Shown piece after piece: positions 5,556-17,691 of a stretch of 42,351 nt of DNA (positions are counted from its first letter, which is position 1; each line of letters starts with the position of its first letter). The notes below the pieces were generated by a model, which made no database searches, was not told the origin of the DNA, and saw nothing but the letters and a program-made list of their open reading frames with translations. Made by a program: the position numbers and the translations under genes. Location: positions 1-42,351 of IMG/VR virus record IMGVR_UViG_3300045988_041457; one strand, written 5' to 3'. Origin of the DNA: a virus.

Positions 5556-6671
5556 ATGAAAGAGAAAGAAACAAACGTGGCATTTGACATGCTCAAAGAG
5601 CCTGAAAGGATGGAAATCACGTCCGGTATGACAACGGAGGAAATCAAGGCGTTGTTCTTCGATGCGAGCGCATTGAGAGAGCCGAAATACAAGGTCTATC
5701 GCCTTGACAGCAACGGCTATCGCTATTATTACAGATTCAACGAGGCAGGTGAACCGGAGTTCTATCCTTCAGTTACTACATTGTTAAGGCAGGTAATGCC
5801 GACAAGTCCGTTTTTGATTTCGTGGATGATGGAGAATGGCAAAGAACAGGCGGAAGAAAAGCGCGATTTGTCCGCCGCTTACGGAACGTTGATGCACATG
5901 GAATTTGAGCGATTGATAATATCGCGCAAGTATGACTTTGACGCGGTGCCGGAAGTCGTGAGGGCGTATATGCAAGAGAACCATTTGCCGGATAAGTTCT
6001 TCGGCGATAGCGTGGTGAAGTTGCGTAAAGATGTGCTTGCTTTTGCGCAGTTCATAAAGGATTACAACGTCAAGCCGTTGGCTATCGAGATAGGACTTGT
6101 TCATCCGGAGTATCACTTTGCCGGATGCGTGGATATGCCTTGCGAAATGGTTGACCCAAAGACGGGCGAGGTGTTCAAAGCTATTGTTGATTTCAAGTCT
6201 GGACGCAAGGGATTCTTCGAGGAACACGAGATTCAGTTGCATTTGTACGCGATGATGTGGAATGTGAACTTTCCGGACATGCAGATTGACAAGGTGTTTA
6301 ATTTTTCGCCGAAAGATTGGCGCACGAAGCCGACATATAATTTGAAAGACCAGACGGATTCGCCAAATGCGGCCAAGATTCCGGCATTGTTGCAGTTAGC
6401 AACGATTGAGGATGAGAAGCGAAAGAACACATTGACAATCGTACATGGTGAGATTTCGCTGGACAACAACGAGCCGCTGAATAATATTCTTTCCATTTCG
6501 CTTGCGGAACTCGTAAAGAGTAAGACAAGCAAGGAAGAAATGGCCGAAATTAGGCCAAATTTCGAGCCTAAGGAAGAAAGCGAGGGAAATATACCTTTGG
6601 TCGAGGAAAAGGCGAATACGGACGGAATTTGCGGCATACCGCAAGACTTGTTCGATGAAGATGAGTTTTGA
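5556..6671 (+). CDS. PD-(D/E)XK superfamily nuclease (RecB/Cas4-like phage exonuclease)
   Basis: The sequence GCVDM ... AIVDFKSGRK ... HEIQLHLYAMMW gives the D / D-x-K / QxxxY motif order of RecB-family nucleases. Confidence 0.65.
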   Translation: MKEKETNVAFDMLKEPERMEITSGMTTEEIKALFFDASALREPKYKVYRLDSNGYRYYYRFNEAGEPEFYPSVTTLLRQVMPTSPFLISWMMENGKEQAEEKRDLSAAYGTLMHMEFERLIISRKYDFDAVPEVVRAYMQENHLPDKFFGDSVVKLRKDVLAFAQFIKDYNVKPLAIEIGLVHPEYHFAGCVDMPCEMVDPKTGEVFKAIVDFKSGRKGFFEEHEIQLHLYAMMWNVNFPDMQIDKVFNFSPKDWRTKPTYNLKDQTDSPNAAKIPALLQLATIEDEKRKNTLTIVHGEISLDNNEPLNNILSISLAELVKSKTSKEEMAEIRPNFEPKEESEGNIPLVEEKANTDGICGIPQDLFDEDEF

Positions 6672-6673
6672 TT

Positions 6674-7372
6674 ATGGGCGGTAGAATTGTAAGGCCGGAA
6701 ACTCCACAAGGTTTGGAGTTTCCGGAAATAGGCAGACTGCATATAGGGATGAAAAGCGACAAAGGCTACCCGATGAGCATAGATTGGTTTCGCGCAACAG
6801 GCAAGTATGCAGACAAGTTCACAGAAGCCTATGGTGATAAGCCGAACACCATCCAGATAGTTTTTCCGTCCGATAATGTCGAGTATGTATGTAACGAAAG
6901 ATTCGAATATCGAGATAATGCAGGCGCGTTGTTGTCAGATGGTGACGGTAAGACTTTCCGCCTTTGGAATGGCAAATCATGGTCGATGTATTCGACAGAG
7001 CAATATCCGGACTTCATGGAGTGGGTTGTCAAGAACTATCCGACAAAGCGAGGTGCGGAAAATTGGAATATTACCTTGACTTTGAGATTTATCATACCGG
7101 CAATTCGCGGCATTATGGGTGTCTGGAGATTCAGCACGAAAGGTTCAGCGTCAAGTGTGAACAATATCCGCAATTCGTTTGATTCAGTGATGCAGATGCG
7201 CGGCTCCGTCACGACTTCGGTATTCGATTTGTCGGTGCATTTCCACAAGTCAAACAAGCCAAACGATAATTCGCGTTATCCTGTTGTCGACTTGATAGCG
7301 AATGATACGCGAATTGAGGATATTCGAAAGATGTTACAGCAAGATTCAAATCTTAAATTGTTACAGAAATGA
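6674..7372 (+). CDS. Hypothetical protein. It is a candidate recombination partner (annealing or ssDNA-binding protein) on position only
   Basis: Track ORF 6668..7372 starts at TTG. ATG 6674 follows the nuclease stop by 2 nt. I recognised no motif. The function guess rests only on the common exonuclease-plus-SSAP gene pairing. Confidence 0.5.
   Translation: MGGRIVRPETPQGLEFPEIGRLHIGMKSDKGYPMSIDWFRATGKYADKFTEAYGDKPNTIQIVFPSDNVEYVCNERFEYRDNAGALLSDGDGKTFRLWNGKSWSMYSTEQYPDFMEWVVKNYPTKRGAENWNITLTLRFIIPAIRGIMGVWRFSTKGSASSVNNIRNSFDSVMQMRGSVTTSVFDLSVHFHKSNKPNDNSRYPVVDLIANDTRIEDIRKMLQQDSNLKLLQK
6695..6725. other. Perfect 12-bp-stem hairpin 21 nt into ORF 6674..7372
   Basis: CCGGAAACTCCA (6695-6706), loop caaggtt, then TGGAGTTTCCGG (6714-6725). 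Confidence 0.85.
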
Positions 7373-7803
7373 TTGATATAGATATTGACAAATCATATAC
7401 AAAAAAGGCAGCGGCAGAATGCATGGGCATTTCTATATACGCTGTCAACAAGGCTATCAGAATAGGAAGATTGCAAAGTACCGAAAATGATGGCAAAATA
7501 GAGATTAAAGGTTCGGATTTGTATAAATACTGCAAATCAAGGTGGGATGTCCTACGAAGAACGCCGTTAGCGGAAAAGAAGTATAACATGTCAACCATTG
7601 ACGGGGTGCTGTCAGAGTGCAACCGGATAGCGAATTTTATTGGTGTTCGAATCGAGTTCCGGCATGACGGGTACAGGGTAATCTTGAACGGAAAGACATA
7701 CGCAAAGAATCTTGATTTAGGGTGCTTGCTTGCGTTCATGCAAGGGTGTGATATGTTTTATCGCGTTCATAAAAATTGTGCAATACCTAAATATTACAGA
7801 TGA
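7369..7803 (+). CDS. HTH DNA-binding protein (excisionase/MerR-like HTH at the N-terminus)
   Basis: KKAAAECMGISIYAVNKAIRIGRLQS is a helix-turn-helix pattern. The gene has ATGA overlaps with both neighbours. Confidence 0.5.
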   Translation: MIDIDIDKSYTKKAAAECMGISIYAVNKAIRIGRLQSTENDGKIEIKGSDLYKYCKSRWDVLRRTPLAEKKYNMSTIDGVLSECNRIANFIGVRIEFRHDGYRVILNGKTYAKNLDLGCLLAFMQGCDMFYRVHKNCAIPKYYR

Positions 7804-8567
7804 TGGAGAACATAGAATTATATAATGACCATTTCCAAAATTTCAAAGTGTATCATTTACCAAAGGCACAATTGGTCATAGCGGATATTCCGTACAATAT
7901 CGGGAAAAATGCGTATGGTAGCAATCCGAAATGGTACAAGGATGGAGACAACAAGAACGGAGAATCCGAGTTGGCCGGTAAAGAATTTTTCGACACGGAC
8001 AAAGATTTTCGAGTGGCAGAATATATGCACTTTTGTTCGCACATGCTGAAAAAAGAGCCAAAAGAAACTGGGAAAGCACCATGTATGATTGTTTTTTGCG
8101 CGTTTGAGCAACAAATGTACGTTATTGAAAAGGCGCGCGAAGCCGGATTTAACAATTATATCAATCTGGTTTTCCGCAAAAATTATTCGGCGCAAGTCCT
8201 CAAAGCGAACATGCGGATAGTTGGTAATTGCGAATATGCAATTCTTCTCTATCGTGACAAGTTGCCGAAGTTCAACAATAACGGGCGAATGATATTCAAC
8301 TGCATGGATTATCCGCGCGATAATGAAAGCCCGAAAATTCATCCGACACAGAAGCCTATTCAGTTGTTAGAGAGGCTTATAGAGATTTTTACAGACCCTG
8401 ACGATGTAGTAATTGACCCGTGTGCCGGAAGCGGATCTACGTTGGTAGCAGCGCAAATTACAGGGCGCAAAGCATACGGATTCGAGATTAAAAAGGATTT
8501 CTACAAAAAGGCTTGCGAGTGGATAAACATGCCAAAAGTGCATAATATGTTTAATCAAAATTTGTAA
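7800..8567 (+). CDS. DNA methyltransferase, beta-class N6-adenine/N4-cytosine family (orphan, no endonuclease partner seen)
   Basis: Motif IV (IADIPYNIG, a DPPY variant) precedes motif I (VIDPCAGSGSTLVAA). HPTQKPIQLLERLI is typical of the N-4/N-6 DNA methylase family. Confidence 0.85.
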   Translation: MMENIELYNDHFQNFKVYHLPKAQLVIADIPYNIGKNAYGSNPKWYKDGDNKNGESELAGKEFFDTDKDFRVAEYMHFCSHMLKKEPKETGKAPCMIVFCAFEQQMYVIEKAREAGFNNYINLVFRKNYSAQVLKANMRIVGNCEYAILLYRDKLPKFNNNGRMIFNCMDYPRDNESPKIHPTQKPIQLLERLIEIFTDPDDVVIDPCAGSGSTLVAAQITGRKAYGFEIKKDFYKKACEWINMPKVHNMFNQNL

Positions 8568-8573
8568 AAAAAT

Positions 8574-8686
8574 TGTAGGTAACAAAAAATTTTGTACATT
8601 TGCAATGTGATAGCGGCAACTATCGGAGAAAATTAAAAGGCCACGAGAGGATTGTTTGAGGTTGCCGACTCAACATCTTCTCGTGG
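8574..8686 (+). promoter_or_regulatory. Promoter and structured leader of the replication-initiator operon
   Basis: TTG at 8574-8576, a 19-nt spacer, and TACATTTG at 8596-8603. The leader hairpin pairs CCACGAGA (8641-8648) with TCTCGTGG (8679-8686), with an inner TTGAG/CTCAA pair. ATG at 8701. Confidence 0.5.
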
Positions 8687-8700
8687 CTATTTTTATAGCC

Positions 8701-9591
8701 ATGAACTATTTATATAACATCAGCATTAACCAGTGTGCGGTAATCGAGAATGGTTGGGATTTAGACCTTGCTGACCTTGCGATTTTTCAAGTCTTTCATA
8801 TTTTCGGAAATGCTCCGAAAACAGTGAGGGTAAAGGTTGACGGCTCGGATTATTTCATGATAACCGCAAAAAAAATCAGAGAAGAATTGCCGATTCTAGG
8901 CATAAATACTGACAAGCAAATAAAGAATCGAATTGCAAAACTAGTCGCTTGCAAACTTTTGGATGAAAGGGTTGTCGAGGAATTGGGTTCTGGACGCAAG
9001 TCCTATTGTTTCGGTGAAAACTATGAGAAATTATTTTCCACTAGCGGAAAAAATTTTGCGCAAGAGCGGAAAAATATTTCCGATGAGGTGGAAAAAAATT
9101 TCCAACAAGGGTGGAAAAAAATTTCCACTGAAGATTATACTAAAAAAGAAGATAATACTAAAGATTATACTAATAATGCCCCCCTTATATCCCCCCGAGG
9201 GGAAAACAACGCCTCTGACATTTCCGGTGATTTGAATAATGATGGCGTTTCTAAAGCGAAAAAGGAACTTTGTCCGTTTGCCTCAACGGAATTCAAAGAG
9301 GCGTGGGAAATGTTGTTGCAACAGCCGAAGTGGAAAAAGAAATCGCTGAATGCTATAAGGTTGTCCGCTAAAAAATTAAAGAAGTTTGAGGAAGAATTTG
9401 CGCGAACCATGGTAGAACTTGCGATTGTGAACGATTGGCATGGTGTTATCTTTCCGGACACAGAAGAACGTTACAAGAAGTGGCTACAAGGCAGGCAAGC
9501 GGCTAAACCGGCCGGAACACCGCAATTCAGAAGCGAAGCGGACAAAAGGGCATATTATGAGGGTTTGCTAAATGGAACGATAAGGCGATGA
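8701..9591 (+). CDS. Replication initiator / replisome-organizer-like protein (lambda O-like architecture)
   Basis: Track ORF 8656..9591 starts at TTG inside a leader hairpin, so I prefer ATG 8701. There is an N-terminal winged-helix-like domain. The low-complexity linker is encoded by four phased iterons plus an AT-rich tract (9044-9173). A C-terminal helical domain follows. Confidence 0.55.
   Translation: MNYLYNISINQCAVIENGWDLDLADLAIFQVFHIFGNAPKTVRVKVDGSDYFMITAKKIREELPILGINTDKQIKNRIAKLVACKLLDERVVEELGSGRKSYCFGENYEKLFSTSGKNFAQERKNISDEVEKNFQQGWKKISTEDYTKKEDNTKDYTNNAPLISPRGENNASDISGDLNNDGVSKAKKELCPFASTEFKEAWEMLLQQPKWKKKSLNAIRLSAKKLKKFEEEFARTMVELAIVNDWHGVIFPDTEERYKKWLQGRQAAKPAGTPQFRSEADKRAYYEGLLNGTIRR
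9044..9173. repeat. Candidate origin of replication: four phased iterons plus an AT-rich direct-repeat tract inside the initiator gene
   Basis: The iterons are gcGGAAAAAATTTTgcg (9044-9060), gcGGAAAAATATTTCCg (9066-9082), gtGGAAAAAAATTTCCa (9088-9104) and gtGGAAAAAAATTTCCac (9111-9128). Their starts are 22, 22 and 23 bp apart. AAGATTATACTAA (9131-9143), AAGATAATACTAA (9149-9161) and AAGATTATACTAA (9161-9173) follow. Confidence 0.55.
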
Positions 9592-10340
9592 AAAAGACAG
9601 AATATTTGCAGATTCCGCAAGTGGCAAAAATGCTTACGGAAAATGAGAAGAAAGTAGTAAGAGCAAATGATGGAAAGCCGCTTTTGAAAGCGGAGGATTT
9701 TGAGATAGTTGAGGTGCTTGACAGAGCAGCATTGATGACCGGAACTGCGTGGTCGAAAACACAAAACGATTTGCGCCGAATTGTGGATTTCATCCGCGAT
9801 ATGTTCGGCAATCTTACGACAGATGATTTTGTCAATGCTTTCATGTTCCTATGTGCTGGCGAAATTGATATGTATTTGCCGGCGAATAGGTCAGGACAAC
9901 CGGACCGGAATTCTTACGGAACGTTTAACGAAGCATACATTGGCAAAGTTTTGCGCGCATATTCAAATTATTGCTATCAAGTATATCGTAAGATTAACTA
10001 TTATATGCCGCGAGCGCGAGTAACAGATATTGATGCTGGCAATGATGAAAGGCGCAATCACGAAAGAAACAGGCAGGAAAGAAACAGGAATGTGCTTAAT
10101 GAGTTTGAAACGTGGAAAAAAAGTGGAAATCTGGGATGTGATAATTTCGAAATTATTGTCATTTGGCAAGCACTTTATTCGCTTGGCTTGATACAAGGAC
10201 AGGAAGCGGGCGTTAATGATGTTGTCAATGCCGTTATGTGCAGCAAGAAAGACGAGAGGAGAATAAATGACATTAAGACAGCGTTTTCAGAAGTTGCAAG
10301 AAAAAAAATCAATTTACAGAATAAATTAAATGAGTTATGA
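9588..10340 (+). CDS. Hypothetical protein in the helicase-loader (lambda P-like) position
   Basis: Track ORF with ATGA overlaps to the initiator and to the RuvC-like gene. It has no Walker motif. The function is inferred from position only. Confidence 0.55.
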   Translation: MKKTEYLQIPQVAKMLTENEKKVVRANDGKPLLKAEDFEIVEVLDRAALMTGTAWSKTQNDLRRIVDFIRDMFGNLTTDDFVNAFMFLCAGEIDMYLPANRSGQPDRNSYGTFNEAYIGKVLRAYSNYCYQVYRKINYYMPRARVTDIDAGNDERRNHERNRQERNRNVLNEFETWKKSGNLGCDNFEIIVIWQALYSLGLIQGQEAGVNDVVNAVMCSKKDERRINDIKTAFSEVARKKINLQNKLNEL

Positions 10341-10897
10341 AAGAGATGCAGATTAACGCTATCATGGGCATAGACCCAGGAGCACAAGGTGGTATCGCGG
10401 TCTATATCGACGGAATGAACGTCAAAAGGCACAAAATGCCGAAAGACAATGAAGAATTGCGCGATTTGTTGAATTACTATCGTACGAACTTCAATTGCTT
10501 GGCGTTTCTGGAAAAATTATGCTTGCGTCCGGATGATGTGTCGGTTGATGGTGGAAAGAAGAACATGGGAAAGGCGTTCAGGATGCAGAAGATGTTAGCG
10601 AACTTCGAGCACCTGAAAGCGGTTCTGGAGATTATCGGAATGCCGTATGTGCTTGTGCATCCGATGTCATGGCAGTCAAGATTAGGTTTGCGAATCAAGG
10701 GAGAGGAAAAGAAAGAGAGGAAAGCGAGATACAAGGAAGAAGCGGAAAAGTTGTATGGTGGAAATGTTACGCTTTGGAATGCCGATGCGCTTTTGATAAT
10801 GCACTTTGGGCGACACATCCTCAAAAATGATGTAAAATGGTTGCTGAAGAACTTGCCGGAAAGGGAGCATGGGAAACTATTTGCCGATAATGGCTAA
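10337..10897 (+). CDS. RuvC-like Holliday-junction resolvase
   Basis: AIMGIDPGAQGGIAVY supplies the N-terminal catalytic Asp motif, AFLEK the Glu, and NADALLIMHFGRH the C-terminal Asp. Confidence 0.6.
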   Translation: MKEMQINAIMGIDPGAQGGIAVYIDGMNVKRHKMPKDNEELRDLLNYYRTNFNCLAFLEKLCLRPDDVSVDGGKKNMGKAFRMQKMLANFEHLKAVLEIIGMPYVLVHPMSWQSRLGLRIKGEEKKERKARYKEEAEKLYGGNVTLWNADALLIMHFGRHILKNDVKWLLKNLPEREHGKLFADNG

Positions 10898-10900
10898 AAA

Positions 10901-10965
10901 TAGGCGATTATAGCGACTTTTGAAGAAAAGATATATAATTTATCAATCGCGCGAAAAAACGCGCG
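10901..10965 (+). promoter_or_regulatory. Class-2 composite motif, copy B (upstream of dut)
   Basis: TAGGCGA at 10901-10907, TAGCGAC at 10911-10917 and core AAGATATATAATTTATC at 10928-10944. The hairpin CGCGCG-aaaaaa-CGCGCG spans 10948-10965. TAAAACGCAAATT and AAAATAACATG follow. The ATG lies 91 nt after box 1. Confidence 0.6.
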
Positions 10966-10991
10966 TAAAACGCAAATTTGGAGAAAATAAC

Positions 10992-11411
10992 ATGGAAGTA
11001 AAAGTTAAGAAAGTAATGGATTGTGCGGTTATGCCGGCCAAGGCGCACGCGGCAGATGCAGGATTCGATTTGAGGGCTTGCAAGGTTGAACGTGTCGGAT
11101 TCGATGAAATAGTATGTCATACAGGATTAGCCTTTGAAATTCCAGATGGACATGTCGGTTTGTTATTTCCTAGGAGTTCAATCGCACGGACTGCAATGAT
11201 GCTGAAAAATTCGGTCGGAGTTCTGGATTCTTGCTATCGTGGTGAAGTCACTTTCAAATTCCGTCAATTGGATAATGGAGACACGTATAATGTAGGCGAT
11301 AAAATAGGGCAAATTATTATAATGCCTTATCCGGAAATCATATTTGTCGAAAGTGATAATTTGAGCGATACGGAGCGCGGTGCTGGTGGCTATGGTTCGA
11401 CAGGCAGATAA
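10992..11411 (+). CDS. dut: dUTP diphosphatase (dUTPase)
   Basis: All five trimeric dUTPase motifs are present: AGFDL, PRSS, GVLDSCYRGE, GDKIGQIII and RGAGGYGSTG. Track ORF 10920 starts at TTG inside the upstream regulatory motif, so I prefer ATG 10992. Confidence 0.92.
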   Translation: MEVKVKKVMDCAVMPAKAHAADAGFDLRACKVERVGFDEIVCHTGLAFEIPDGHVGLLFPRSSIARTAMMLKNSVGVLDSCYRGEVTFKFRQLDNGDTYNVGDKIGQIIIMPYPEIIFVESDNLSDTERGAGGYGSTGR

Positions 11412-11439
11412 AAATTTTCGAAAATATTTTGCAAAAATG

Positions 11440-11512
11440 TTTGCAAATTAAAAAATAATGCTTAACTTTGTATCGGATTCAAGAAAGAATCACTGACAAG
11501 GCAGTTTCCTTG
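11440..11512 (+). promoter_or_regulatory. Class-1 promoter plus twin-hairpin leader, copy 4
   Basis: TTTG at 11440-11443, a 19-nt spacer, and TAACTTTG at 11463-11470. The hairpins are GATTC-aagaaa-GAATC (11476-11491) and CAAGG-cagttt-CCTTG (11497-11512). ATG at 11535. Confidence 0.75.
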
Positions 11513-11534
11513 AAACATTAAATTTTTAGAAATT

Positions 11535-11786
11535 ATGGATAATGTAAAAGTTATGAAAGTCGCTCGTTTGGCAAAGAACTTTTTGAGAATTGCAGATGAA
11601 TTGAATGAGAAAGTTTCAAGATATTTCAATGGTTCAAATGCTTCAGAAGATGTTAGAGCCTATGAGATGGTAAGGGAAGCAGATAAAAAGTTCGTGGATG
11701 GCCTGAATGATTTAGAGGATGAGCGTTATGAGTATGGCTTGAATTATGAACTTGCAGAATCTTTTTTGGATGGTTTTAATTTCTAA
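11535..11786 (+). CDS. Hypothetical acidic protein (83 aa)
   Basis: Track ORF preceded by promoter/leader copy 4. Confidence 0.65.
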   Translation: MDNVKVMKVARLAKNFLRIADELNEKVSRYFNGSNASEDVRAYEMVREADKKFVDGLNDLEDERYEYGLNYELAESFLDGFNF

Positions 11787-11797
11787 AATTTTGAGTT

Positions 11798-12058
11798 ATG
11801 AAAAGGTTTGAAGTTGGTAAAACTTATAGGATGGTAAGCCCTTGCGATACAAATTGCGCATGGTATTACACGGTAACAAAGAGGACTGCAAAAACAGTCA
11901 CTTTGTTGGATTTTGACAAAGAAGAAACGATTGTCCCGAGGTTGGCAGAAATGAAAGCGATTGACAGAGTAACGAGCATTGAAAGTGGCGAGGAATATTG
12001 CAAGCCGTTGGGCGATTTCTCGATGTGTCCTATTTTACGCGCTTCTAAAGATGTATAA
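11798..12058 (+). CDS. Hypothetical protein (86 aa)
   Basis: Track ORF with close spacing to its neighbours. Confidence 0.6.
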   Translation: MKRFEVGKTYRMVSPCDTNCAWYYTVTKRTAKTVTLLDFDKEETIVPRLAEMKAIDRVTSIESGEEYCKPLGDFSMCPILRASKDV

Positions 12059-12060
12059 TC

Positions 12061-12324
12061 ATGAGCGAGTTTGATGAATTGGTAAAGTTGGGAAAGTCGA
12101 AAGGCTGGGTGCTTTCCGAGATGTACCGAAATAAGGGTTATAAATTTGCGGCTTTCCGGATGGAAAACAAGAAAATGTTTTTCATGGTTCAAGATGGTAT
12201 GTTTAACGTGGGTTTTTATGGCTTTATTCCGGATAATCCTTTGGAGATTATGTTTAGGGATTGCGGAGATTCTTTAATATCGGTGGCTAGTTTGACCTTT
12301 GAGCAGATACAAAGTTTGATATAA
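12061..12324 (+). CDS. Hypothetical protein (87 aa)
   Basis: Track ORF starting 2 nt after the previous stop. Confidence 0.6.
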   Translation: MSEFDELVKLGKSKGWVLSEMYRNKGYKFAAFRMENKKMFFMVQDGMFNVGFYGFIPDNPLEIMFRDCGDSLISVASLTFEQIQSLI

Positions 12325-12330
12325 TATGAT

Positions 12331-12401
12331 TGCCTTATGGTGTAATGGTAGCACAAATGATTTTGGTTCATTTAGTTCCGGTTCGAATCCGGATAGGGTA
12401 A
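12331..12401 (+). tRNA. tRNA-Gln (anticodon UUG), no encoded CCA
   Basis: I folded the cloverleaf by hand. The acceptor pairs 12331-12337 with 12394-12400 (two G-U pairs, U1-A72). The D stem is gtgt/gcac with an aatggta loop. The anticodon stem is aatga/tcatt with loop tt-TTG-gt (U33, G37). The T arm is tccgg-ttcgaat-ccgga. Confidence 0.85.
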
Positions 12402-12429
12402 CAAAGAACAACCAAAAAACTGAAGTTGT

Positions 12430-13845
12430 ATGTATGTAAAAAAACTTGAATTGTTGAACTTCCAAGTAATCAAGGAATTCAACGCTAATTTTGACGGAAA
12501 CGTCTATTTGATTACGGGTGACAATGAGCTGGGTAAATCTACCTTGCTAAAGGCTATCGGTGCGCTTTTGACCGGAAACCGCGACAACGTTCTTCGAAAG
12601 GGAGAAAGTAAGGGATTTGCAAAGATGGTAGTAGGTGACGGAGGTGAGGAATACGAAGTTTCTCTAAACTTCACAGAGGCAAATCCGCGCGGAACGTTGA
12701 CCATTAAATCGAAGTCCGGCATGAAGTCGAATAACGTGTCAATGCTTCAGAGCATTTTCGGCTATCAAGATTTCGATGCAGTGGAGTTCTCCAGATGGAG
12801 TGAAACGGCAGAGGGAAGAAGAAAGCAGATTGAGGTGGTTAAAAAGTTGTTGCCGGATGCGGTAGTCAAGCGCATTGACGAAATCGACAATGAAATGGCG
12901 CAACTGAAAGATGAAAGACTATTCCTCAATCGTGATGTGAAGTCTTTGAAATCGGTGGTCGATGATGCGCGTAAAGGTCTCACGGATGCGGACATTCAGA
13001 AGTATTCTAAAAAAATCGACGTGTCGGACTTGATGCAGGAGCAGTCAAAGAGGCTTGCGCTGATTGAAAAGTCGAAATCTGTGAAGTCGATGATGGAGCA
13101 GAGGACGAGGGAACTTGCCGAATTGCCGGTACAGATGGAGGAAGAAAAACAGCATTATGACGAAGATTTGCTGAAAATCGCTGCAAAATTAGCAGAAGCG
13201 CAAAGGGTGTTCGAGATGGCGCAAAAGGAAGCGGAAATCGAAAAGAATAACAGAGTTGCGAAATATATGGCTTTTTTGGCTGACATGGAAAGCAAGAAAA
13301 CCGATTTGTCGCAAAGAAAGGAAAATGCGGAGAAATGGCTTGCAGACTTCGAAAAGCGCAACATTACCGCAGACGATTTGACGCAGAGGCTTGCACAAGC
13401 GGAGGAACACAACCGCAAGAGTGGTGAAGTGGCTACATATCTGGAGAAGTATGAATCATTGAAAGCGGCTGATGCAAAGGTGGAGGATGTCGAGACGCGC
13501 ATAGGGTCGCTTTCTGGCGAAAGGGCAGAACTGATAGCAAATTCACACCTGCCTATCGAGGGGCTTACGTTCTCGGATTCAGGCTTGGAATTGAACGGCA
13601 TTCCTTTCATGGCCGGAAATGTGTCAGATAGCCAGATAATGGAGGTTGCAACGAAATTGATAATCGCAAGTAATCCGAAAGTCAAGGTGTTCAGAATCGC
13701 AAGGGGTGAAAGTCTGGGAGAAAAGAGATTGGAAGCAATCGTTGACGTGGCGAAGAAAAATGGATTTCAAGGATTCATTGAGCAGGTTCAGAGAGGCCAG
13801 AATGACATGATTATCGAGGAATACACGGAGGCAAACAATGAATGA
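12430..13845 (+). CDS. SMC/Rad50/SbcC-like ATPase with a central coiled coil
   Basis: The N-terminal Walker A is LITGDNELGKSTLLKAIG. A long Glu/Lys/Ala-rich helical middle follows. The C-terminal ABC-like half (SDSQIMEVATKLIIA ... VFRIARGESLGEKRLEAI) resembles a signature plus Walker B region. Confidence 0.7.
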   Translation: MYVKKLELLNFQVIKEFNANFDGNVYLITGDNELGKSTLLKAIGALLTGNRDNVLRKGESKGFAKMVVGDGGEEYEVSLNFTEANPRGTLTIKSKSGMKSNNVSMLQSIFGYQDFDAVEFSRWSETAEGRRKQIEVVKKLLPDAVVKRIDEIDNEMAQLKDERLFLNRDVKSLKSVVDDARKGLTDADIQKYSKKIDVSDLMQEQSKRLALIEKSKSVKSMMEQRTRELAELPVQMEEEKQHYDEDLLKIAAKLAEAQRVFEMAQKEAEIEKNNRVAKYMAFLADMESKKTDLSQRKENAEKWLADFEKRNITADDLTQRLAQAEEHNRKSGEVATYLEKYESLKAADAKVEDVETRIGSLSGERAELIANSHLPIEGLTFSDSGLELNGIPFMAGNVSDSQIMEVATKLIIASNPKVKVFRIARGESLGEKRLEAIVDVAKKNGFQGFIEQVQRGQNDMIIEEYTEANNE

Positions 13846-14257
13846 CTATCAAGCGATAGGAATAGTTGACGACAGCGGCCATTTGCGTATGCCGATGGCC
13901 GATGTCAATGATTTTTTCCGCAAGCACAAGGGCGATAGAATCGTGGCGCGATTCATGGCTTATCCTAGGGGCTGTTCGGATGCCCTCAAAGGTTATTATT
14001 ATAACTATGTCGTACCGACAATGCGCCGCGCGTTGAATGACATGGGAGAAGCAAAGACGGATGCGGAAACTGACGTATATTTGCGCGAGGTGTGTCCGTT
14101 GCTACAATGTCAGCGGAAGATTGAGGATGGCTGGGATAGCAGGACGCTTGAAATAGAGGAATTGGGCGATAGGTTAATGATTGATTTCTTGGAGTGGTTA
14201 AAGATGTGGGGCGCGGAAAACATGTCAGTATATATTGAAGAACCAAAAATTTTATAA
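13838..14257 (+). CDS. Hypothetical protein (139 aa), translationally coupled to the ATPase
   Basis: Track ORF with an 8-nt overlap onto the ATPase gene. Confidence 0.6.
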   Translation: MNDYQAIGIVDDSGHLRMPMADVNDFFRKHKGDRIVARFMAYPRGCSDALKGYYYNYVVPTMRRALNDMGEAKTDAETDVYLREVCPLLQCQRKIEDGWDSRTLEIEELGDRLMIDFLEWLKMWGAENMSVYIEEPKIL

Positions 14258-14259
14258 TT

Positions 14260-14436
14260 ATGAGAAAGATTGATTTTAAGGAGTATGATAGTTACACCTA
14301 CAAGGAAGCAGGGTTCTCGTACACAAGCACAAATTTCGATGAGGTTATGGGTTTGTTGAAAGAGCGAAAGAAAGGGGTTGTGTACGGCAACAAGCTAAAT
14401 GGAGATGTCAACATCTTGGATGGAATAATGGAATAA
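14260..14436 (+). CDS. Small hypothetical protein (58 aa)
   Basis: This ORF is below the track cutoff. ATG 14260 lies 2 nt after the previous stop. The ORF ends just before the regulatory motif at 14444. Sequence: MRKIDFKEYDSYTYKEAGFSYTSTNFDEVMGLLKERKKGVVYGNKLNGDVNILDGIME. Confidence 0.45.
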   Translation: MRKIDFKEYDSYTYKEAGFSYTSTNFDEVMGLLKERKKGVVYGNKLNGDVNILDGIME

Positions 14437-14443
14437 GCTAAAT

Positions 14444-14508
14444 TAGGCGATTTTAGCGACTTTCTTCAAAAAGATGATAAATTGTATTACTTCGCCGAGA
14501 AAGTCGCT
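14444..14508 (+). promoter_or_regulatory. Class-2 composite motif, copy C
   Basis: TAGGCGA at 14444-14450, TAGCGAC at 14454-14460 and core AAGATGATAAATTGTAT at 14471-14487. A 10-bp perfect inverted copy of box 2 (AGCGACTTTC at 14455-14464, GAAAGTCGCT at 14499-14508) brackets the core. TAAAACGCAAATT and AAAATAACATG follow. The ATG lies 91 nt after box 1. Confidence 0.6.
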
Positions 14509-14534
14509 TAAAACGCAAATTAAATAAAAATAAC

Positions 14535-14723
14535 ATGAAAACAATCGAATTGAATTATCCGCCGTCTGTTGCGGTTGAGTACGTTCGGAATTGGATTGCA
14601 GTTCTGGACAAGTTCAAGGACGCTACAATCGAACAAAAGGCAATTGTCGCAGATTTGTTGACGCTTGCAATGTTGGCCGAAAAGGCTTTGACACCGCAAG
14701 AGAAGAAAACTAATGAAAACTAA
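14535..14723 (+). CDS. Hypothetical protein (62 aa)
   Basis: Track ORF preceded by class-2 motif copy C and the conserved AAAATAACATG start context. Confidence 0.6.
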   Translation: MKTIELNYPPSVAVEYVRNWIAVLDKFKDATIEQKAIVADLLTLAMLAEKALTPQEKKTNEN

Positions 14724-14735
14724 AAAACAAGTATC

Positions 14736-15185
14736 ATGGAGAAGAAATTTGAACTTAAAAAGGTTGTGCGCAACCGCGTTGAAATTGATTGCAAGTACAT
14801 CATGACGGAGACAAACGATGATGGAATTAGGACAATCAAGGAAAATCATGTAAAGGATTCGAGGGCTATTCATGATGATTTGAAGGCTTTGTTTGACAAG
14901 TTGAAGCCGATAGTCGCAGGCATATTCCGGTGGGAATGTCTTGACGATGTTGAGGTAGCCGGATTCGCACTTGCCGGAAAGAATGATAATATCGGAGTGA
15001 CGATTCTTGGCCAGTACATGACGACGCATGGAGAGGCTAAATTCAAATCACCGCGAATCAAATACGCTGTCGGAGAAAGTCCGGAATGTGCTGATTTGAC
15101 AGTCATAATCAATGATTTCGTCCGTGAAATGGAATTGTATCTGTTTCATGACAAAACGGCCGAAATGGGCACATTTGGCGAGTAA
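14736..15185 (+). CDS. Hypothetical protein (149 aa)
   Basis: Track ORF. Confidence 0.65.
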   Translation: MEKKFELKKVVRNRVEIDCKYIMTETNDDGIRTIKENHVKDSRAIHDDLKALFDKLKPIVAGIFRWECLDDVEVAGFALAGKNDNIGVTILGQYMTTHGEAKFKSPRIKYAVGESPECADLTVIINDFVREMELYLFHDKTAEMGTFGE

Positions 15186-15617
15186 ATGAATACTTTTCTT
15201 ATAGATAGTCGAGTTTTGTATGATTATGCTCGTTCACGAGGCTATGAGCCTTTAATTGATACGCGGTTTTTCCGAATGGAAATAGGCTTGCGAAAAGAAT
15301 TGCAACGGGAAAGGTTCGGGAACGGGCATACGCCTAGCGAGAACGAGCGGTTCTATCGCTTCATGTGGGAGAATAAGCCTCACTATTGCGAGGAATGTAT
15401 GCGGCCTTTGTCCGAGTATTCGGCGGTCTATGTGTCTCACATATTGACCAGAGGGGCGAATCCGGACATGGCACACGATGCAAGAAACGTCAATATCTTG
15501 TGCTTCAGACATCATGCGGAATGGGAGAATGGAGAGAGAGAAAAGATGCGGATTTGGGCAAAGAATCAAGCGACTATTGAGGAATTGAAAAAGGATTACA
15601 AACAAACAAGCAAGTAA
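15186..15617 (+). CDS. HNH endonuclease
   Basis: CEEC ... VSHILTRGANPDMAHDARNVNILCFRHHAEWENG gives the His-Asn-His core with flanking Cys/His zinc ligands. Confidence 0.6.
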   Translation: MNTFLIDSRVLYDYARSRGYEPLIDTRFFRMEIGLRKELQRERFGNGHTPSENERFYRFMWENKPHYCEECMRPLSEYSAVYVSHILTRGANPDMAHDARNVNILCFRHHAEWENGEREKMRIWAKNQATIEELKKDYKQTSK

Positions 15618-15848
15618 ATGAAACCAATTGAATTTGACGGCGCAAATTGCGTTTATGGTAAAGAGCAACCCGAATATCAGCCATTACCTGCCAATAAAGG
15701 CAACGACGGTACGGTTGTTACCTGTTGGCAATTGGAACCGGGCGATTTGGAACGCATAAAGGAAACGGGGTGCGTTTGGTTGTCAGTTCTAACATTCAAT
15801 GAAGCATTGCAACCAGTTTTGTTGCTTACCGAAAATCCGAGTTTATGA
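15618..15848 (+). CDS. Hypothetical protein (76 aa)
   Basis: Track ORF starting directly after the HNH stop. Confidence 0.6.
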   Translation: MKPIEFDGANCVYGKEQPEYQPLPANKGNDGTVVTCWQLEPGDLERIKETGCVWLSVLTFNEALQPVLLLTENPSL

Positions 15849-15919
15849 GAACAACGGAATCGAAACAATATGAACCCGATAACACGGGAAAGAATGTCTA
15901 ATGTTAAAAGAAAAATAAA

Positions 15920-16330
15920 ATGAATCTTGTTTTACTAAAAGGAAGTGTCGGACATGACGCAAAGATTACTAACTTTGAGGGTGGCGGAAAGGTGGCTCAG
16001 TTCTCACTTGCCACGACTGAAAGAGGTTACACCAAAAAGGACGGAACAAAGGTTGAACCTACGACCGAATGGCACAATGTGGTAGTGCGAAATTCAGGTC
16101 TTGCCGGAGTATGCGAGCAGTACGTGAAGAAAGGAACTTCCTTGCTTGTGCAGGGCAAAATACAAACGAGAGAATGGACGGGCAACGATGGAGTGACAAA
16201 GAGAATAAACGAGATTATCGCCAGCAATTTGGAGTTGCTTCCTGGCGGCCAGAAACGCGAGAGTGCACCGGCGCCGATGCCGGATAGTATGCCACAGGGC
16301 GAAGTGAAAGATGATGATATGCCATTTTAA
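15920..16330 (+). CDS. ssb: Single-stranded DNA-binding protein
   Basis: The OB-fold SSB pattern is present (NLVLLKGSVGHDA...FSLATTE...TEWHNVVV...YVKKGTSLLVQGKIQTREW). There is a Gly/Pro-rich linker and the acidic tail DDDMPF. Confidence 0.92.
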   Translation: MNLVLLKGSVGHDAKITNFEGGGKVAQFSLATTERGYTKKDGTKVEPTTEWHNVVVRNSGLAGVCEQYVKKGTSLLVQGKIQTREWTGNDGVTKRINEIIASNLELLPGGQKRESAPAPMPDSMPQGEVKDDDMPF

Positions 16331-16338
16331 TTAACCGA

Positions 16339-16362
16339 TAGCACGGGCATTTGTCCGTGCTA
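16339..16362 (+). terminator. Hairpin / weak terminator after ssb
   Basis: TAGCACGG-gcatttgt-CCGTGCTA forms an 8-bp stem. Only a weak T tract (aaatttg) follows. Confidence 0.45.
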
Positions 16363-16375
16363 AATTTGATAAATT

Positions 16376-16888
16376 ATGCAGATTAACAATATCGAATATA
16401 ATGCAGAATTGCATGAACAGTACAAGTGTCTTTCGATACCTCAACCGATAGCGGATTGGATGACAAAATTAGAATACATGGACGAAAACGGAGAATTTCA
16501 CGCGCGTAAAGAGGTTGAAATCCGTTCTAGGAATGTCAAGCACAGGGGCGATGTATTGATTTGTTCATCTAAATTTCCGGAAGTGGCTGGATGTGATTGC
16601 GGTGTTACCTTGGGGCTAGTCGAATTATATGATGTCAAACGTGTAGCAGATTTCACAGATGAGGATTGGTCGAAAACGGCATTGCCGAAATCGGAATGGG
16701 TGCGAAAGACCGGATATGGTTATTTCTTCCGCAATCCGCGTCCGGTGGTGGAAATGCCGGTAAAGGGTATGCTAGGTTTCTATAAGATAACGTTACCGAA
16801 AGGCGATATAACCGAATATCCACGATATTTAGAGGTTGGAGAAAGAGAATGGAGAAAAATAAATCACAAATTTTTTCAAAAAAAATAA
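16376..16888 (+). CDS. ASCH (PUA-like) domain protein
   Basis: LSIPQPIADWM ... KEVEIRSRNVKHRGDVLICSSK ... LGLVELYDV matches the ASCH pattern (SIxQPWA ... E.R ... RG.llI.asK). Confidence 0.5.
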   Translation: MQINNIEYNAELHEQYKCLSIPQPIADWMTKLEYMDENGEFHARKEVEIRSRNVKHRGDVLICSSKFPEVAGCDCGVTLGLVELYDVKRVADFTDEDWSKTALPKSEWVRKTGYGYFFRNPRPVVEMPVKGMLGFYKITLPKGDITEYPRYLEVGEREWRKINHKFFQKK

Positions 16889-16896
16889 AGGAATTG

Positions 16897-16969
16897 TTTG
16901 TAAATTAAAAATAAATGATTACCTTTGTATCGGATTCAAGAACGAATCACTGACAAGGCAGTTTCCTTG
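16897..16969 (+). promoter_or_regulatory. Class-1 promoter plus twin-hairpin leader, copy 5
   Basis: TTTG at 16897-16900, a 19-nt spacer, and TACCTTTG at 16920-16927. The hairpins are GATTC-aagaac-GAATC (16933-16948) and CAAGG-cagttt-CCTTG (16954-16969). ATG at 16992. Confidence 0.75.
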
Positions 16970-16991
16970 AAACATTAAATTTTTAGAAATT

Positions 16992-17417
16992 ATGGAAAAG
17001 ATTTTTGACAAAAAGTATACATTCTCTTTTATAGCACCTAGCAATGTTATCGAGGAAATTAAGTCAGACATGAGATTTTCAACATTTGTTAAGGTAAGCG
17101 AGACCTCTAACATATTCAGGCCGAGCATCCAGATGCGCTTTTGGTGCGGTTCTGGGGAACATTGCAGTATGGATGTAATTGGCTATGACAAAAAGGCTAT
17201 GGAGGGCTTGCATGAGTTTATCAAGCGAAATGAGGCGGTTGTGGAAACCACCGACATTACGGCAACAGATGCTTCGGATATATTGGTAACATATATGAGC
17301 GAAGTTCGAAAAATTGAATGGAACAATTTAATTTGCAAACATACCTCAAGAATCCCAACAGGGGAATTGTCACGAGAGACGGAAGAAGTGCGAGGATTAT
17401 TTGTACACAGAGGTTAG
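16992..17417 (+). CDS. Hypothetical protein (141 aa)
   Basis: Track ORF preceded by promoter/leader copy 5. Its last 100 nt overlap the next ORF in another frame. Confidence 0.55.
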   Translation: MEKIFDKKYTFSFIAPSNVIEEIKSDMRFSTFVKVSETSNIFRPSIQMRFWCGSGEHCSMDVIGYDKKAMEGLHEFIKRNEAVVETTDITATDASDILVTYMSEVRKIEWNNLICKHTSRIPTGELSRETEEVRGLFVHRG

Positions 17418-17689: not shown

Positions 17690-17691
17690 TT

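Follow-up and report, generated by a model that had tools for sequence, protein, structure and literature searches.

The locus described here raises the question of what is conserved in a phage leader that occurs in several copies, and what such a leader could do for the genes behind it. The window, i.e., the whole analysed stretch of 42,351 nucleotides (IMG/VR virus record IMGVR_UViG_3300045988_041457), contains five copies of a promoter-leader module, all of them on the + strand and starting at 2198, 3224, 3760, 11440 and 16897 (alignment A1); the repeat families D1-D3 that cover these copies show 67–89% identity across 77–132 nt. An earlier note on this DNA had placed five copies at these coordinates, each with two equivalent, covarying hairpins. 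The copies and their strand were recovered by the alignment and by the repeat families; the equivalence of the hairpins had to be given up, given that hairpin 1 is a sequence-free accessory and hairpin 2 is predicted to be part of a sequence-conserved pseudoknot.

In each copy, a promoter of the form TTTG-N19/20-TAnnTTTG is followed by two small stem-loops, an A/U-rich spacer of 20–25 nt and the ATG, which lies 19–24 nt past the last stem base in the five window copies. The pattern TTTG-N17-22-TAnnTTTG has 8 matches in the window versus 1.86 expected, a number reached by none of 100 shuffles, and six of the eight are the claimed intergenic sites on the + strand. All five module promoters have A/T-rich tracts upstream. 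Hairpins resembling intrinsic terminators are located immediately upstream of copy 2 (3176-3194) and copy 3 (3703-3724), and none was found ahead of copies 4 and 5; a single-gene cassette (3318-3647) is bracketed by the copy 2 promoter and the terminator-like hairpin before copy 3. A Pfam search with the genes behind the five modules gave no matches, and a DNA-level search for close cultured relatives of the window found none. The view that the five copies are recurring host-type, presumably early, promoter-leader modules is supported. A sixth promoter, reported earlier at 20832-20862, is real; the hairpin assigned to it turned out to be a 7-bp stem from which the conserved motif is absent. 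The features are as follows:

2198-2229, + strand: copy 1 promoter, with the -33 TTTG at 2198-2201, a 20-nt spacer and the -7 box TACCTTTG at 2222-2229 (pattern search, alignment A1)
2239-2254, + strand: copy 1 hairpin 1, TGAGG/GAAATA/CCTCA (RNAfold)
2256-2277, + strand: copy 1 pseudoknot, ACGGACAAGGCCGATTCCTTGA, with the ATG at 2301; S1 pairs CGG 2257-2259 with CCG 2266-2268, L1 is A2260, S2 pairs CAAGG 2261-2265 with CCTTG 2272-2276, and L3 is ATT (structure-only finder)
3176-3202, + strand: terminator-like hairpin GTTGTG..CACAAC followed by T8, immediately before copy 2
3224-3254, + strand: copy 2 promoter, TTTG-N19-TAACTTTG (pattern search)
3260-3275, + strand: copy 2 hairpin 1, GATTC/AAGAAT/GAATC, extended to 9 bp in RNAfold
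3278-3299, + strand: copy 2 pseudoknot, ACTGACATGGCAGTTTCCATGA, with the ATG at 3318 (structure-only finder); S1 pairs CTG 3279-3281 with CAG 3288-3290, and S2 pairs CATGG 3283-3287 with CCATG 3294-3298
3703-3730, + strand: terminator-like hairpin AGGCAAGG..CCTTGCCT followed by a T-run, immediately before copy 3
3760-3790, + strand: copy 3 promoter, TTTG-N19-TACCTTTG (pattern search)
3796-3811, + strand: copy 3 hairpin 1, GAATC/AAGGAT/GATTC, folded by RNAfold with 6 bp and a 4-nt loop
3812-3833, + strand: copy 3 pseudoknot, ACTGACTAGGCAGATTCCTAGA, with the ATG at 3853 (structure-only finder); S1 pairs 3813-3815 with 3822-3824, and S2 pairs 3817-3821 with 3828-3832
11440-11470, + strand: copy 4 promoter, TTTG-N19-TAACTTTG (pattern search)
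11476-11491, + strand: copy 4 hairpin 1, GATTC/AAGAAA/GAATC (RNAfold)
11492-11513, + strand: copy 4 pseudoknot, ACTGACAAGGCAGTTTCCTTGA, with an A/U-rich spacer at 11513-11534 and the ATG at 11535 (structure-only finder); S1 pairs 11493-11495 with 11502-11504, L1 is A11496, S2 pairs 11497-11501 with 11508-11512, and L3 is TTT
16897-16927, + strand: copy 5 promoter, TTTG-N19-TACCTTTG (pattern search)
16933-16948, + strand: copy 5 hairpin 1, GATTC/AAGAAC/GAATC (RNAfold)
16949-16970, + strand: copy 5 pseudoknot, ACTGACAAGGCAGTTTCCTTGA, with the ATG at 16992 (structure-only finder); S1 pairs 16950-16952 with 16959-16961, and S2 pairs 16954-16958 with 16965-16969
20832-20896, + strand: a further promoter of this type, the sixth, whose 7-bp hairpin at 20877-20896 is unrelated; it has no pseudoknot and falls outside the module family

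The RNAfold minimum-energy structure contains both hairpins in all five window copies and leaves the leader spacer unpaired. The stems are those given in the earlier note. Copies 2, 4 and 5 have GATTC/GAATC as the stem of hairpin 1, which is swapped to GAATC/GATTC in copy 3 and replaced by TGAGG/CCTCA in copy 1; for hairpin 2, the stem CAAGG/CCTTG is shared by copies 1, 4 and 5, copy 2 has CATGG/CCATG, and copy 3 has CTAGG/CCTAG. Folding energy alone is poor support for these hairpins: the z-scores of the leaders range from -0.65 to -2.45, the predicted hairpin energies are like those of shuffles, and the lower stems are A/U-rich. Hairpin 1 was missed by an alignment with MAFFT and RNAalifold, the check that had been proposed, as the stems are too divergent to be aligned, and it was judged one copy at a time; the covariation of the pseudoknot was found once relatives were included. 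Among these relatives hairpin 1 has at least 12 different stems and in some it is missing. Hairpin 1 is, by this comparison, a variable and apparently dispensable accessory at the predicted 5' end of the transcript.

The true conserved unit is predicted to be a compact H-type pseudoknot of which hairpin 2 forms part. Its consensus, of 20–22 nt, is 5'-A-CNG-A-CNNGG-CN'G-NUU-CCN'N'G-A, where the upstream CNG pairs with the first three bases of the loop; it is composed of a 3-bp S1 (CNG:CN'G), a one-nucleotide L1, a 5-bp S2, no L2, and L3 with the sequence NUU, and in the structural model S1 and S2 would stack as one quasi-continuous helix of 8 bp. All five window copies have, 5' of hairpin 2, a CNG triplet that can pair with the start of the loop, as CUG/CAG in four of them and CGG/CCG in copy 1. 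This is an additional compensatory change; neither it nor the terminator-like hairpins before copies 2 and 3 had been noticed in the earlier note. When IMG/VR was scanned with patterns that left the covarying positions unconstrained, the three free pairs were all complementary in 74 of 101 distinct contexts, versus approx. 3.5 by chance. In alignment A2, which takes in chance matches too, the covariation score was 0.262 versus 0.076 in shuffles (0/500 shuffles reached 0.262), and the paired fraction was 88.5% versus 22–53% in slid controls. The middle pair of S1 is found in all four Watson-Crick forms (C-G, U-A, G-C and A-U), and its first pair is A-U in the Parabacteroides phage PDS1; the closing pair flips to U-A in locus L026, the junction pair to A-U in locus L010, and the fourth pair of S2 to C-G (CCGCG/CGCGG). 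A finder that uses structure only, with no sequence constraint, detected the fold in 10 of 56 windows downstream of promoters versus 1.9% of random windows. Every copy of the pseudoknot lies on the coding strand, and G.U pairs are present in genuine copies, A.C only among chance genome matches. At the level of sequence, these comparisons show that the predicted pseudoknot is a real, structurally selected, sense-strand element; the idea that selection maintains single-strand base pairing, and not a fixed duplex sequence, is supported by the covariation, which is strong once relatives are added.

The pseudoknot is shared by many unrelated phages, including Salmonella phages, and it is located behind promoters, tRNA genes or stop codons; the genes downstream of it belong to at least 41 unrelated clusters or families. 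Approx. 430 Guernseyvirinae of Salmonella and E. coli carry a single copy before the gene for a DUF2815/Gp2.5-like single-stranded DNA-binding protein (SSB, gp38), with UAAA repeats in the spacer. Cultured carriers are PDS1 and the Salmonella/E. coli genera Jerseyvirus and Kagunavirus; DNA-level searches for close cultured relatives of loci L191, L141, L020 and L016 found none. In bacterial genomes (596 Gb, 185,579 species), a scan that covered the U-A form of S1 gave complementarity at chance level, in 4 of 34 matches, and an origin in host genomes was rejected on this basis for that form; the pseudoknot appears to be largely phage-restricted. With blastp at 1e-4, no protein was common to the window phage and Ent2 or the other non-Bacteroidota pseudoknot loci, and at this BLAST-level sensitivity a shared phage protein was discarded as the binding partner. 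The element is confined neither to the early cassettes of the window phage nor to promoters: it also stands behind tRNA genes and stop codons, and it is present in phages that have no detectable proteins in common with the window phage. This spread makes it less likely that the early cassettes are coordinated by a regulator specific to the phage, one of the earlier suggestions.

The position of the pseudoknot is constrained on one side in particular. In 86 of 100 cases, 15–24 nt separate the 3' end of S2 from the ATG behind it, showing that the distance of the pseudoknot from start codons is constrained. In Bacteroides thetaiotaomicron, the modal length of the whole 5' UTR is 23 nt, and A is enriched at positions -3, -6 and -11 to -15 (PMC7366714). 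On the upstream side, the first structure is found 3–9 nt past the -7 box, or 7 nt past the sigma-70 -10 hexamer, relative to predicted starts. Hairpin 1 itself begins 3–9 nt past the -7 box, which agrees with its previously suggested placement at or near the predicted 5' end of the transcript; in other relatives this distance is 3–5 nt, in loci L187 and L205 the pseudoknot begins 4–5 nt past the -7 box, and in Guernseyvirinae it is the pseudoknot that begins 7 nt past the -10 hexamer. In seven contexts the pseudoknot lies 3–9 nt beyond the 3' end of a tRNA. A 5'-terminal placement is not universal, as in 22 of 114 contexts the pseudoknot starts right behind an upstream stop codon and in 39 of 114 there is no recognised feature that would generate a 5' end. 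In related gut phage contigs, the sequences before and behind identical 22-mers occur in reassorted combinations, among them a four-gamete configuration.

The reading that we favour, to which we give slightly less than even weight, is that the pseudoknot is a self-contained, cis-acting structural cap at or beside the mRNA's 5' end. Each copy would be a compact early-expression cassette transcribed by the host RNA polymerase, in the order optional terminator, A/T-rich stretch, Bacteroidota sigma-A promoter, variable hairpin, pseudoknot, a spacer of ~20 nt of unstructured A/U-rich RNA, and AUG. The pseudoknot would act in cis without a dedicated partner, and the capped 5' end may arise by transcription start or by tRNA processing. 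Such a cap would shield the transcript against 5'-end-dependent decay and prevent base pairing between the A-rich initiation region and upstream sequence; any gene behind it would be expressed predictably, and the pseudoknot would be a natural counterpart to synthetic 5'-UTR insulators. An insulator role would account for its presence at the junctions of shuffled gene cassettes. Counted in favour of a cap without dedicated partner are the lack of a shared protein, the 41 unrelated downstream clusters and the variable distance to the Shine-Dalgarno (SD) sequence; for the cassette junctions, the reassorting contexts around the 22-mers and the terminators flanking copies 2 and 3. Counted against it is the near-invariant sequence across phyla (GG/CC, CNG and NUU), which a plain stabiliser or insulator would not need and which one would sooner expect where a specific partner binds. 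The contexts that are not 5'-terminal and the shuffle-like folding energies of the window copies also count against it, the transcription starts are placed by promoter consensus, and a generally useful element would not be expected to be nearly absent from cellular genomes.

Stabilisers of the E. coli ompA type and synthetic insulators such as RiboJ place a portable structure near the mRNA 5' end, before an unstructured ribosome-binding region. The pseudoknot would resemble them in being context-independent and in lying no more than a few nucleotides from the predicted 5' end; however, those are ordinary hairpins without conserved sequence or engineered parts, whereas this is a sequence-conserved pseudoknot that spans phage lineages and host phyla. 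A wider reading, somewhat more tentative than that of the structural cap, is that the pseudoknot belongs to an unrecognised, phage-restricted class of cis-acting RNA that works on universal host machinery from Bacteroidota to Enterobacteria, either as a sequence-specific ribosome or nuclease decoy or as a minimal, self-sufficient "5' cap" that would give phage mRNAs an advantage in stability and translation, and that it has spread horizontally as a junction of mobile cassettes.

The closest structural parallel leads to a different explanation. The T2/T4 gene 32 pseudoknot consists of S1, a one-nucleotide L1, S2, no L2, and then L3, and the strand order is the same here; both are H-type pseudoknots with which a leader begins on its 5' side. 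It is conceivable, though unlikely, that the pseudoknot is a translational operator of this kind, nucleating the phage SSB or another RNA-binding protein that would spread over the A/U-rich spacer, hide the start codon and, as it accumulates, silence the SSB gene itself or the early cassettes. The layout agrees, in that an unstructured UUAAA/UAAA stretch and the ribosome-binding site come after a 5' pseudoknot (PMC535899; PMC10690425), and both parts, the pseudoknot and the unstructured A/U-rich region, were found here by covariation and RNAfold; the window spacers hold UUAAA or UAAAA, the window phage encodes an SSB (15920-16330), and in the Guernseyvirinae the pseudoknot does precede the SSB gene. 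Nevertheless, the SSB gene of the window lacks a pseudoknot and the five pseudoknots of the window precede non-SSB genes, the SSB families vary among carrier phages with no common protein, and across phages there are the 41 unrelated kinds of downstream gene. The two leaders have no sequence similarity, and they differ in dimensions: 3 + 5 bp and a 3-nt L3 here versus approx. 5–6 + 7 bp and a 7-nt L3 in gene 32, with a spacer of just 15–24 nt versus more than 40 nt in T4.

Somewhat less probable still is a ribosome-recruiting enhancer, which would raise SD-independent initiation through contact of the pseudoknot with a 30S component common to all hosts, such as the platform or protein S1. There is a precedent in ColIb-P9 repZ, where a pseudoknot immediately upstream of the ribosome-binding site enhances translation; the constrained distance to the AUG would place the pseudoknot just beyond the ribosome footprint, its sequence is kept across host phyla without a common phage protein, and it is largely restricted to phages. 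However, in SD-using hosts the distance from pseudoknot to SD ranges from 1 to 21 nt, which is evidence against a fixed docking on the ribosome; complementarity to rRNA is not evident, and in the group of loci L002 through L019 the motif occurs in a terminator-ended unit without a downstream ORF.

Processive antitermination, in which RNA polymerase would be modified by the emerging two-stem RNA so as to read through terminators downstream, is very improbable. HK022 put and lambda nut lie between early promoters and the terminators that have to be read through, and such RNAs have either boxA plus a boxB with a GNRA-like pentaloop or the two-stem put fold of approx. 65–70 nt; the two adjoining stem-loops right behind the early promoters, in a region with terminator-like hairpins, recall them. 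On the other hand, every cassette is equipped with a promoter of its own right behind the preceding terminator, so that read-through would be unnecessary; the pseudoknot is also found far from promoters, behind stop codons and tRNA genes, its distance is fixed to the ATG and not to promoters, and hairpin 1 is dispensable. No boxA-like element was found; the loops are AAGAAA and CAGUUU, the second being engaged in the pseudoknot, and the unit is only ~20 nt long.

The reassortment of contexts around identical 22-mers could also reflect a recombination site at the DNA level, a conserved 22-bp patch of homology for cassette shuffling in which the RNA fold is incidental. The PeSLs (promoter-early stem-loops) of T4-type phages are repeated cassettes at small orphan early genes and junctions of modular shuffling; each combines a terminator stem-loop with a strong host-type promoter that has A/T-rich sequence upstream (PMC2839356). 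The window shares with them the host-type early promoters with A/T-rich upstream sequence, repeated before small orphan genes, its terminator-promoter composite bears some resemblance to theirs, and in the related gut phage contigs the contexts reassort by cassette. In contrast, the PeSL stem-loop is a terminator upstream of the promoter, which here has terminator-like counterparts before copies 2 and 3 only, whereas the structure conserved here lies downstream, in the leader, and is a pseudoknot with RNA-level covariation that also occurs without a promoter; the promoters are of the Bacteroidota -33/-7 type instead of sigma-70. The compensatory changes in both helices, the pseudoknot pair included, which keep the single-strand fold while the DNA sequence changes, the strict coding-strand orientation and the tolerance of G.U and not A.C leave such a site little credence as the sole role; homology-driven exchange would favour identity over covariation.

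The least probable alternative is a self-cleaving or processing element, i.e., a small ribozyme or nuclease site that generates new 5' ends: theta/HDV-like ribozymes adjoin tRNA genes, as the motif does, and it co-occurs with type II hammerheads in loci L001, L006 and L018, but a unit of ~20 nt with a continuous 8-bp helix has no obvious catalytic pocket, the P3, P1.1 and P4 elements of HDV-like folds are absent, and the hammerhead core is not kept at U4 and G8/A9. In these three loci, ACUGACGAGGCAGGUUCC matches the pseudoknot pattern and also supplies a type II hammerhead (RF02276) with its core (CUGAnGA), stem II and the 3' tail of that stem. The Rfam hammerhead model itself spans the GGCAGGUUCC tail in such loci, so the matches may be coincidental, and they are probably hammerhead tails that fit the pattern by chance. 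Elsewhere, position 3 of the pseudoknot varies (C, U, G and A) with compensation, unlike the invariant hammerhead U4, and G8/A9, GAAA and stems I and III are lacking.

Comparison with known RNA families gave no relative. RF02276 had no match in the window at the gathering or E<=10 thresholds, and a hammerhead relationship was rejected for the window copies as the core is not conserved. An HDV-like or theta ribozyme near the tRNAs was rejected for lack of space for P3, P1.1 or P4. At the gathering threshold, Rfam 15 detected only tRNA in the window, and permissive scans of a window leader, the G+C-rich copy L105 and the Ent2 leader gave no relevant family; a match to 6A treats the pseudoknot as a skipped insertion. 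In these permissive scans no covariance model of the preQ1-I, SAM-II, guanidine-III or fluoride riboswitches matched, and the preQ1-I topology is the opposite, given that its loop pairs with 3' sequence and here it pairs with 5' sequence. In the literature, searches by sequence string and by concept brought up no account of the motif; it may be among the ~10,000 candidate viral RNAs of one catalogue (PMC10690425). The earlier remark that no described element of this form was known agrees with the absence of a family match in Rfam 15.

If the pseudoknot is functional, as the covariation implies, it would be among the smallest widely conserved phage RNA folds, and a rare case of the same cis-element in phages that have no genes in common and infect different phyla. 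Bacteroidota do not use Shine-Dalgarno pairing, and their post-transcriptional control is poorly known; a functional pseudoknot would give insight into how early mRNAs are protected or translated in the phages of these bacteria. In the genomes of uncultured gut phages it may also be used to mark where cistrons begin and where early promoters lie, and it could serve as a compact, portable 5'-UTR insulator for the engineering of Bacteroides and enterobacteria. Since cultured carriers exist (PDS1, Jerseyvirus and Kagunavirus), these possibilities are directly testable.

The five copies of the promoter-leader module that the earlier note had described, at 2198, 3224, 3760, 11440 and 16897 on the + strand, are all present at these positions and clearly homologous (alignment A1 of the window copies; repeat families D1-D3). 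Every stem sequence quoted for them was correct, and RNAfold finds both hairpins in 5/5 copies; the folding energies of the leaders are unremarkable (z = -0.65 to -2.45), so the structural case rests on covariation and not on stability. In relatives found independently through their terminase, the promoter-leader layout recurs with different stems, and the triplet located 5' of hairpin 2 covaries with the first three bases of the loop. The stem formed by these two triplets, S1, was found in the following forms (three-digit L-numbers are phage loci outside the window):

CUG/CAG: window copies 2-5
CGG/CCG: window copy 1, L027 and L036
CCG/CGG: L026 and L037
CGC/GCG: L025

This joint change indicates that hairpin 2 and the upstream triplet form an H-type pseudoknot, with the following predicted elements:

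Stem S1: 3 bp, CNG:CN'G (N' being the complement of N)
Loop L1: one nucleotide, usually A
Stem S2: 5 bp
Loop L2, joining the S2 5' strand to the S1 3' strand: zero nt
Loop L3: NUU

IMG/VR was scanned with two patterns, some positions being fixed by the pattern and the counts referring to the matches listed. The first, ACTGACNNGGCAGNTTCCNNGA, holds the conserved bases of hairpin 2 and leaves two variable stem pairs free; these positions were complementary in 21/21 of the loci listed. With the second, ACNGACNNGGCNGNTTCCNNGA, in which the middle pair of S1 is free as well, all three free pairs were complementary in 74 of the 101 distinct contexts listed, versus approx. 3.5 expected; the remaining contexts are mostly chance matches, high in G+C and coding-like. 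Counting pairs on 50 distinct 22-mers, chance matches included, gave a covariation score of 0.262 (reached by 0/500 shuffles) against 0.076 after shuffling, and 88.5% of positions paired in the proposed structure versus 22–53% when the partners were slid by 1–3 columns. The middle pair of S1 occurs as C-G, U-A, G-C and A-U. Compensation is also seen at positions fixed by the pattern, i.e., U-A at the closing pair, C-G at S2 pair 4 (CCGCG/CGCGG), A-U at the junction pair, and A-U at the first S1 pair in the Parabacteroides phage PDS1. A finder based on geometry, free of any sequence constraint, detected the structure in 10/56 windows downstream of promoters versus 1.9% of random windows, and all ten finds carry identical conserved bases. 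The proposal that base pairing is under selection was right. The two hairpins do exist, as had been claimed; they are not equivalent, and the conserved unit is the mini-pseudoknot that contains hairpin 2. Given that G.U pairs appear in genuine copies and A.C in chance matches only, and that the copies lie on the coding strand in every case, the molecule that folds is the sense RNA.

The cultured relative PDS1 (L250, MN929097) has three pseudoknots, at 1912, 2207 and 10418, with ACG/CGU as S1. The one at 1912 falls within the annotated gp_5 (1886-2203), which suggests that the true start of this gene is the ATG located approx. 20 nt 3' of it.

Hairpin 1 is an accessory structure whose sequence is not conserved. 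Of 36 distinct segments between the -7 box and the pseudoknot, approx. 29 form a hairpin, in which the loop measures 4–9 nt and 12 or more different stems occur; five short segments lack it, and there the pseudoknot starts 5–15 nt past the -7 box. Where present, hairpin 1 begins 3–5 nt after this box (9 nt in window copy 1), and since only 1–2 nt separate its end from S1, it could stack on the pseudoknot. Many of its loops are purine-rich with A(A)GGA (window 3801-3806, L193, L026, L037, L150, L203); for instance, CAAGGAUG, shared by window copy 3 and L193, equals the CsrA SELEX consensus core. Other loops carry AAGAAA, so that A(A)GGA is not universal.

Regarding the promoters, TTTG-N17-22-TAnnTTTG occurs 8 times in the window versus 1.86 expected, and 6/8 matches are the + strand intergenic sites named previously. 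The pattern equals the published consensus of the primary sigma factor of Bacteroides (PMC7366714). A sixth promoter, at 20832 (+ strand), was confirmed; its supposed 5-bp/6-nt hairpin is in fact of 7 bp and unrelated to the module. Another match, at 26256-26287, lies within the 3' end of a 579-aa putative portal gene, just upstream of the gene at 26434; the site and the sequence downstream of it are kept in many relatives, for which reason it may be an internal promoter. A second intergenic module, TAGGCGAnnnTAGCGACTTT followed approx. 10 nt on by (A)AAAGATGATAAATTATA, precedes the dUTPase, the gene at 14535, the major head protein and the 1161-aa tail gene, and is never found together with the pseudoknot:

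2047-2122; 10889-10940; 14432-14486; 23716-23770; 32883-32930: copies of the second module

At 2047-2092 its half-site forms 4.6 tandem 10-bp copies (TTTTAGTCGT). This module is probably a second (middle/late) class of promoter or operator.

The window is a complete phage genome of approx. 42.3 kb, circularly assembled, since bases 1-49 recur exactly at 42303-42351 as a 49-bp direct repeat. Its G+C content is 40–45%, and virtually all genes are encoded on the + strand:

264: lysis enzyme gene
approx. 2,000-21,000: early/replication region (exonuclease, methylase, Holliday-junction resolvase, dUTPase, tRNA-Gln, AAA ATPase, SSB, ParB-N, TAGT glycosyltransferase)
Also encoded: terminase, portal, capsid and tail genes

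The large terminase shares approx. 60% identity with its counterparts in cultured phages of Alistipes, Parabacteroides, Bacteroides and Elizabethkingia, and 60–74% with many IMG/VR contigs of 42–46 kb from rumen and gut; these identities place the host within the Bacteroidota. The ParB-N protein, the TET-associated glycosyltransferase (TAGT) and the N6/N4 DNA methylase (19468-20824 and 7800-8567) hint at DNA hypermodification. Within ORF 8701-9591, in the replication region, a unit of 22–23 nt with the palindrome GGAAAAAAATTTCC is present in 3.7 tandem copies (9043-9127), possibly origin iterons.

The genomic context was counted for 114 unique pseudoknots among the matches listed: 46 are preceded by a Bacteroidota promoter, 22 start at most 15 nt from the stop codon of the upstream ORF, 7 start 3–9 nt past a tRNA gene, and 39 have other contexts. 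In relatives with a tRNA before the AAA_15/23 ATPase gene the pseudoknot follows 3–9 nt on (L025:1205, L026:2477, L027:1272, L037:1584, L039:420); at the equivalent site of the window (12331-12429) the 27-nt gap after tRNA-Gln, 12403-12429, contains none. In 86/100 cases the ATG follows the S2 3' end by 15–24 nt, close to the modal length of the whole 5' UTR in B. thetaiotaomicron, 23 nt (PMC7366714). The genes that follow form 41 unrelated clusters, are mostly small orphans, and include an ArdC-like protein, AAA ATPase and SSB.

The pseudoknot is also found after sigma-70 promoters and before Shine-Dalgarno (SD) sequences. Its best-documented case is that of the Guernseyvirinae, with one copy in each of approx. 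430 Salmonella/E. coli phage records:

L245 (NC_023608) 32233-32254, minus strand: Guernseyvirinae pseudoknot; also in L246-L249

Here it begins 7 nt past the sigma-70 -10 hexamer and lies 25–27 nt upstream of a DUF2815/Gp2.5-like SSB gene; the flanks drift and the pseudoknot bases are invariant. This layout suggests autoregulation in the manner of gp32, in a system that is cultured and tractable. In blastp comparisons of the window with a Guernseyvirinae phage and other non-Bacteroidota loci, no shared protein was detectable. The element is widespread and not private to this phage. In bacterial and archaeal genomes (one per species, 185,579 species), a scan covering only the U-A form of S1 gave 34 matches, of which 4 were complementary, the chance rate; these four include at least one phage-like contig. 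None of the leader versions matches an Rfam 15 family, and literature searches returned no description of the motif, in agreement with the earlier note, whose author knew of no such element; the pseudoknot is without a match among described families and is amenable to experiment.

Some members are doubtful. Three of the first 21 matches are type II hammerheads, in high-G+C phage contigs:

L018 3591-3657
L006 3145-3211, minus strand
L001 approx. 7840-7911

The pattern falls on their core, stem II and 3' tail, the Rfam model spans the tail, and they may lie outside the family. They are located directly upstream of an SD and ATG; the GGUU(CC) tail can base-pair with the loop of stem I or form a hairpin/pseudoknot, which might reflect a switch by refolding after cleavage, or mere chance. 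In another high-G+C group (L002 through L019) the motif belongs to a terminator-ended intergenic unit:

L016 4876-5010; also L002, L007, L011, L013, L014, L017, L019: unit of approx. 130 nt

The unit comprises a CRISPR-repeat-like hairpin (CCCCGTG..CGCGGGGATTGCAC), a long A/T hairpin, the pseudoknot and an intrinsic terminator, and looks like a small RNA or 3' UTR; GCUGAG right after the pseudoknot can pair with CUCGGC inside it. As no ORF follows, a role in translation alone does not account for this group.

At the level of sequence, the comparisons establish the pseudoknot as an RNA that is under selection for its structure, is largely confined to phages, and keeps a constrained distance to the start codon downstream of it. 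Regarding its function, the reading that we tentatively place first is that of a minimal structural cap and insulator. It accords with the lack of a protein partner common to the carriers, the high diversity of downstream genes, a pseudoknot-to-SD spacing that ranges from 1 to 21 nt, and a position that commonly adjoins the predicted RNA 5' end; nevertheless, conservation across phyla exceeds what a generic structure needs, and many copies follow stop codons instead of expected 5' ends. The main rival, which we consider rather improbable, is a translational operator of the gp32 type; the two share their pseudoknot topology and their operator layout (PMC535899), and the Guernseyvirinae copy precedes an SSB gene. 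A specific ribosome-recruiting enhancer ranks next and is slightly more doubtful, and the remaining readings, antitermination, recombination purely at the level of DNA, and ribozyme activity, are each unlikely.

Terminator-like hairpins lie in front of two of the window copies:

3176-3194: terminator-like hairpin with T-run, directly upstream of copy 2
3703-3724: terminator-like hairpin with T-run, directly upstream of copy 3

Because they directly precede these copies, gene 3318-3647 is a self-contained promoter-to-terminator cassette. In gut phage contigs an identical 22-mer joins 11 upstream with 9 downstream context classes in 16 combinations, among them one four-gamete configuration. Reassorting contexts and the terminators before copies 2 and 3 recall the PeSL cassettes that mediate modular shuffling in T4-type phages (PMC2839356), with the difference that here the conserved structure is within the transcript leader. 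As a cap and insulator, the pseudoknot would shield the transcript from decay that depends on its 5' end and would prevent upstream sequence from pairing with the A-rich initiation region, and shuffled genes would thereby gain a predictable expression.
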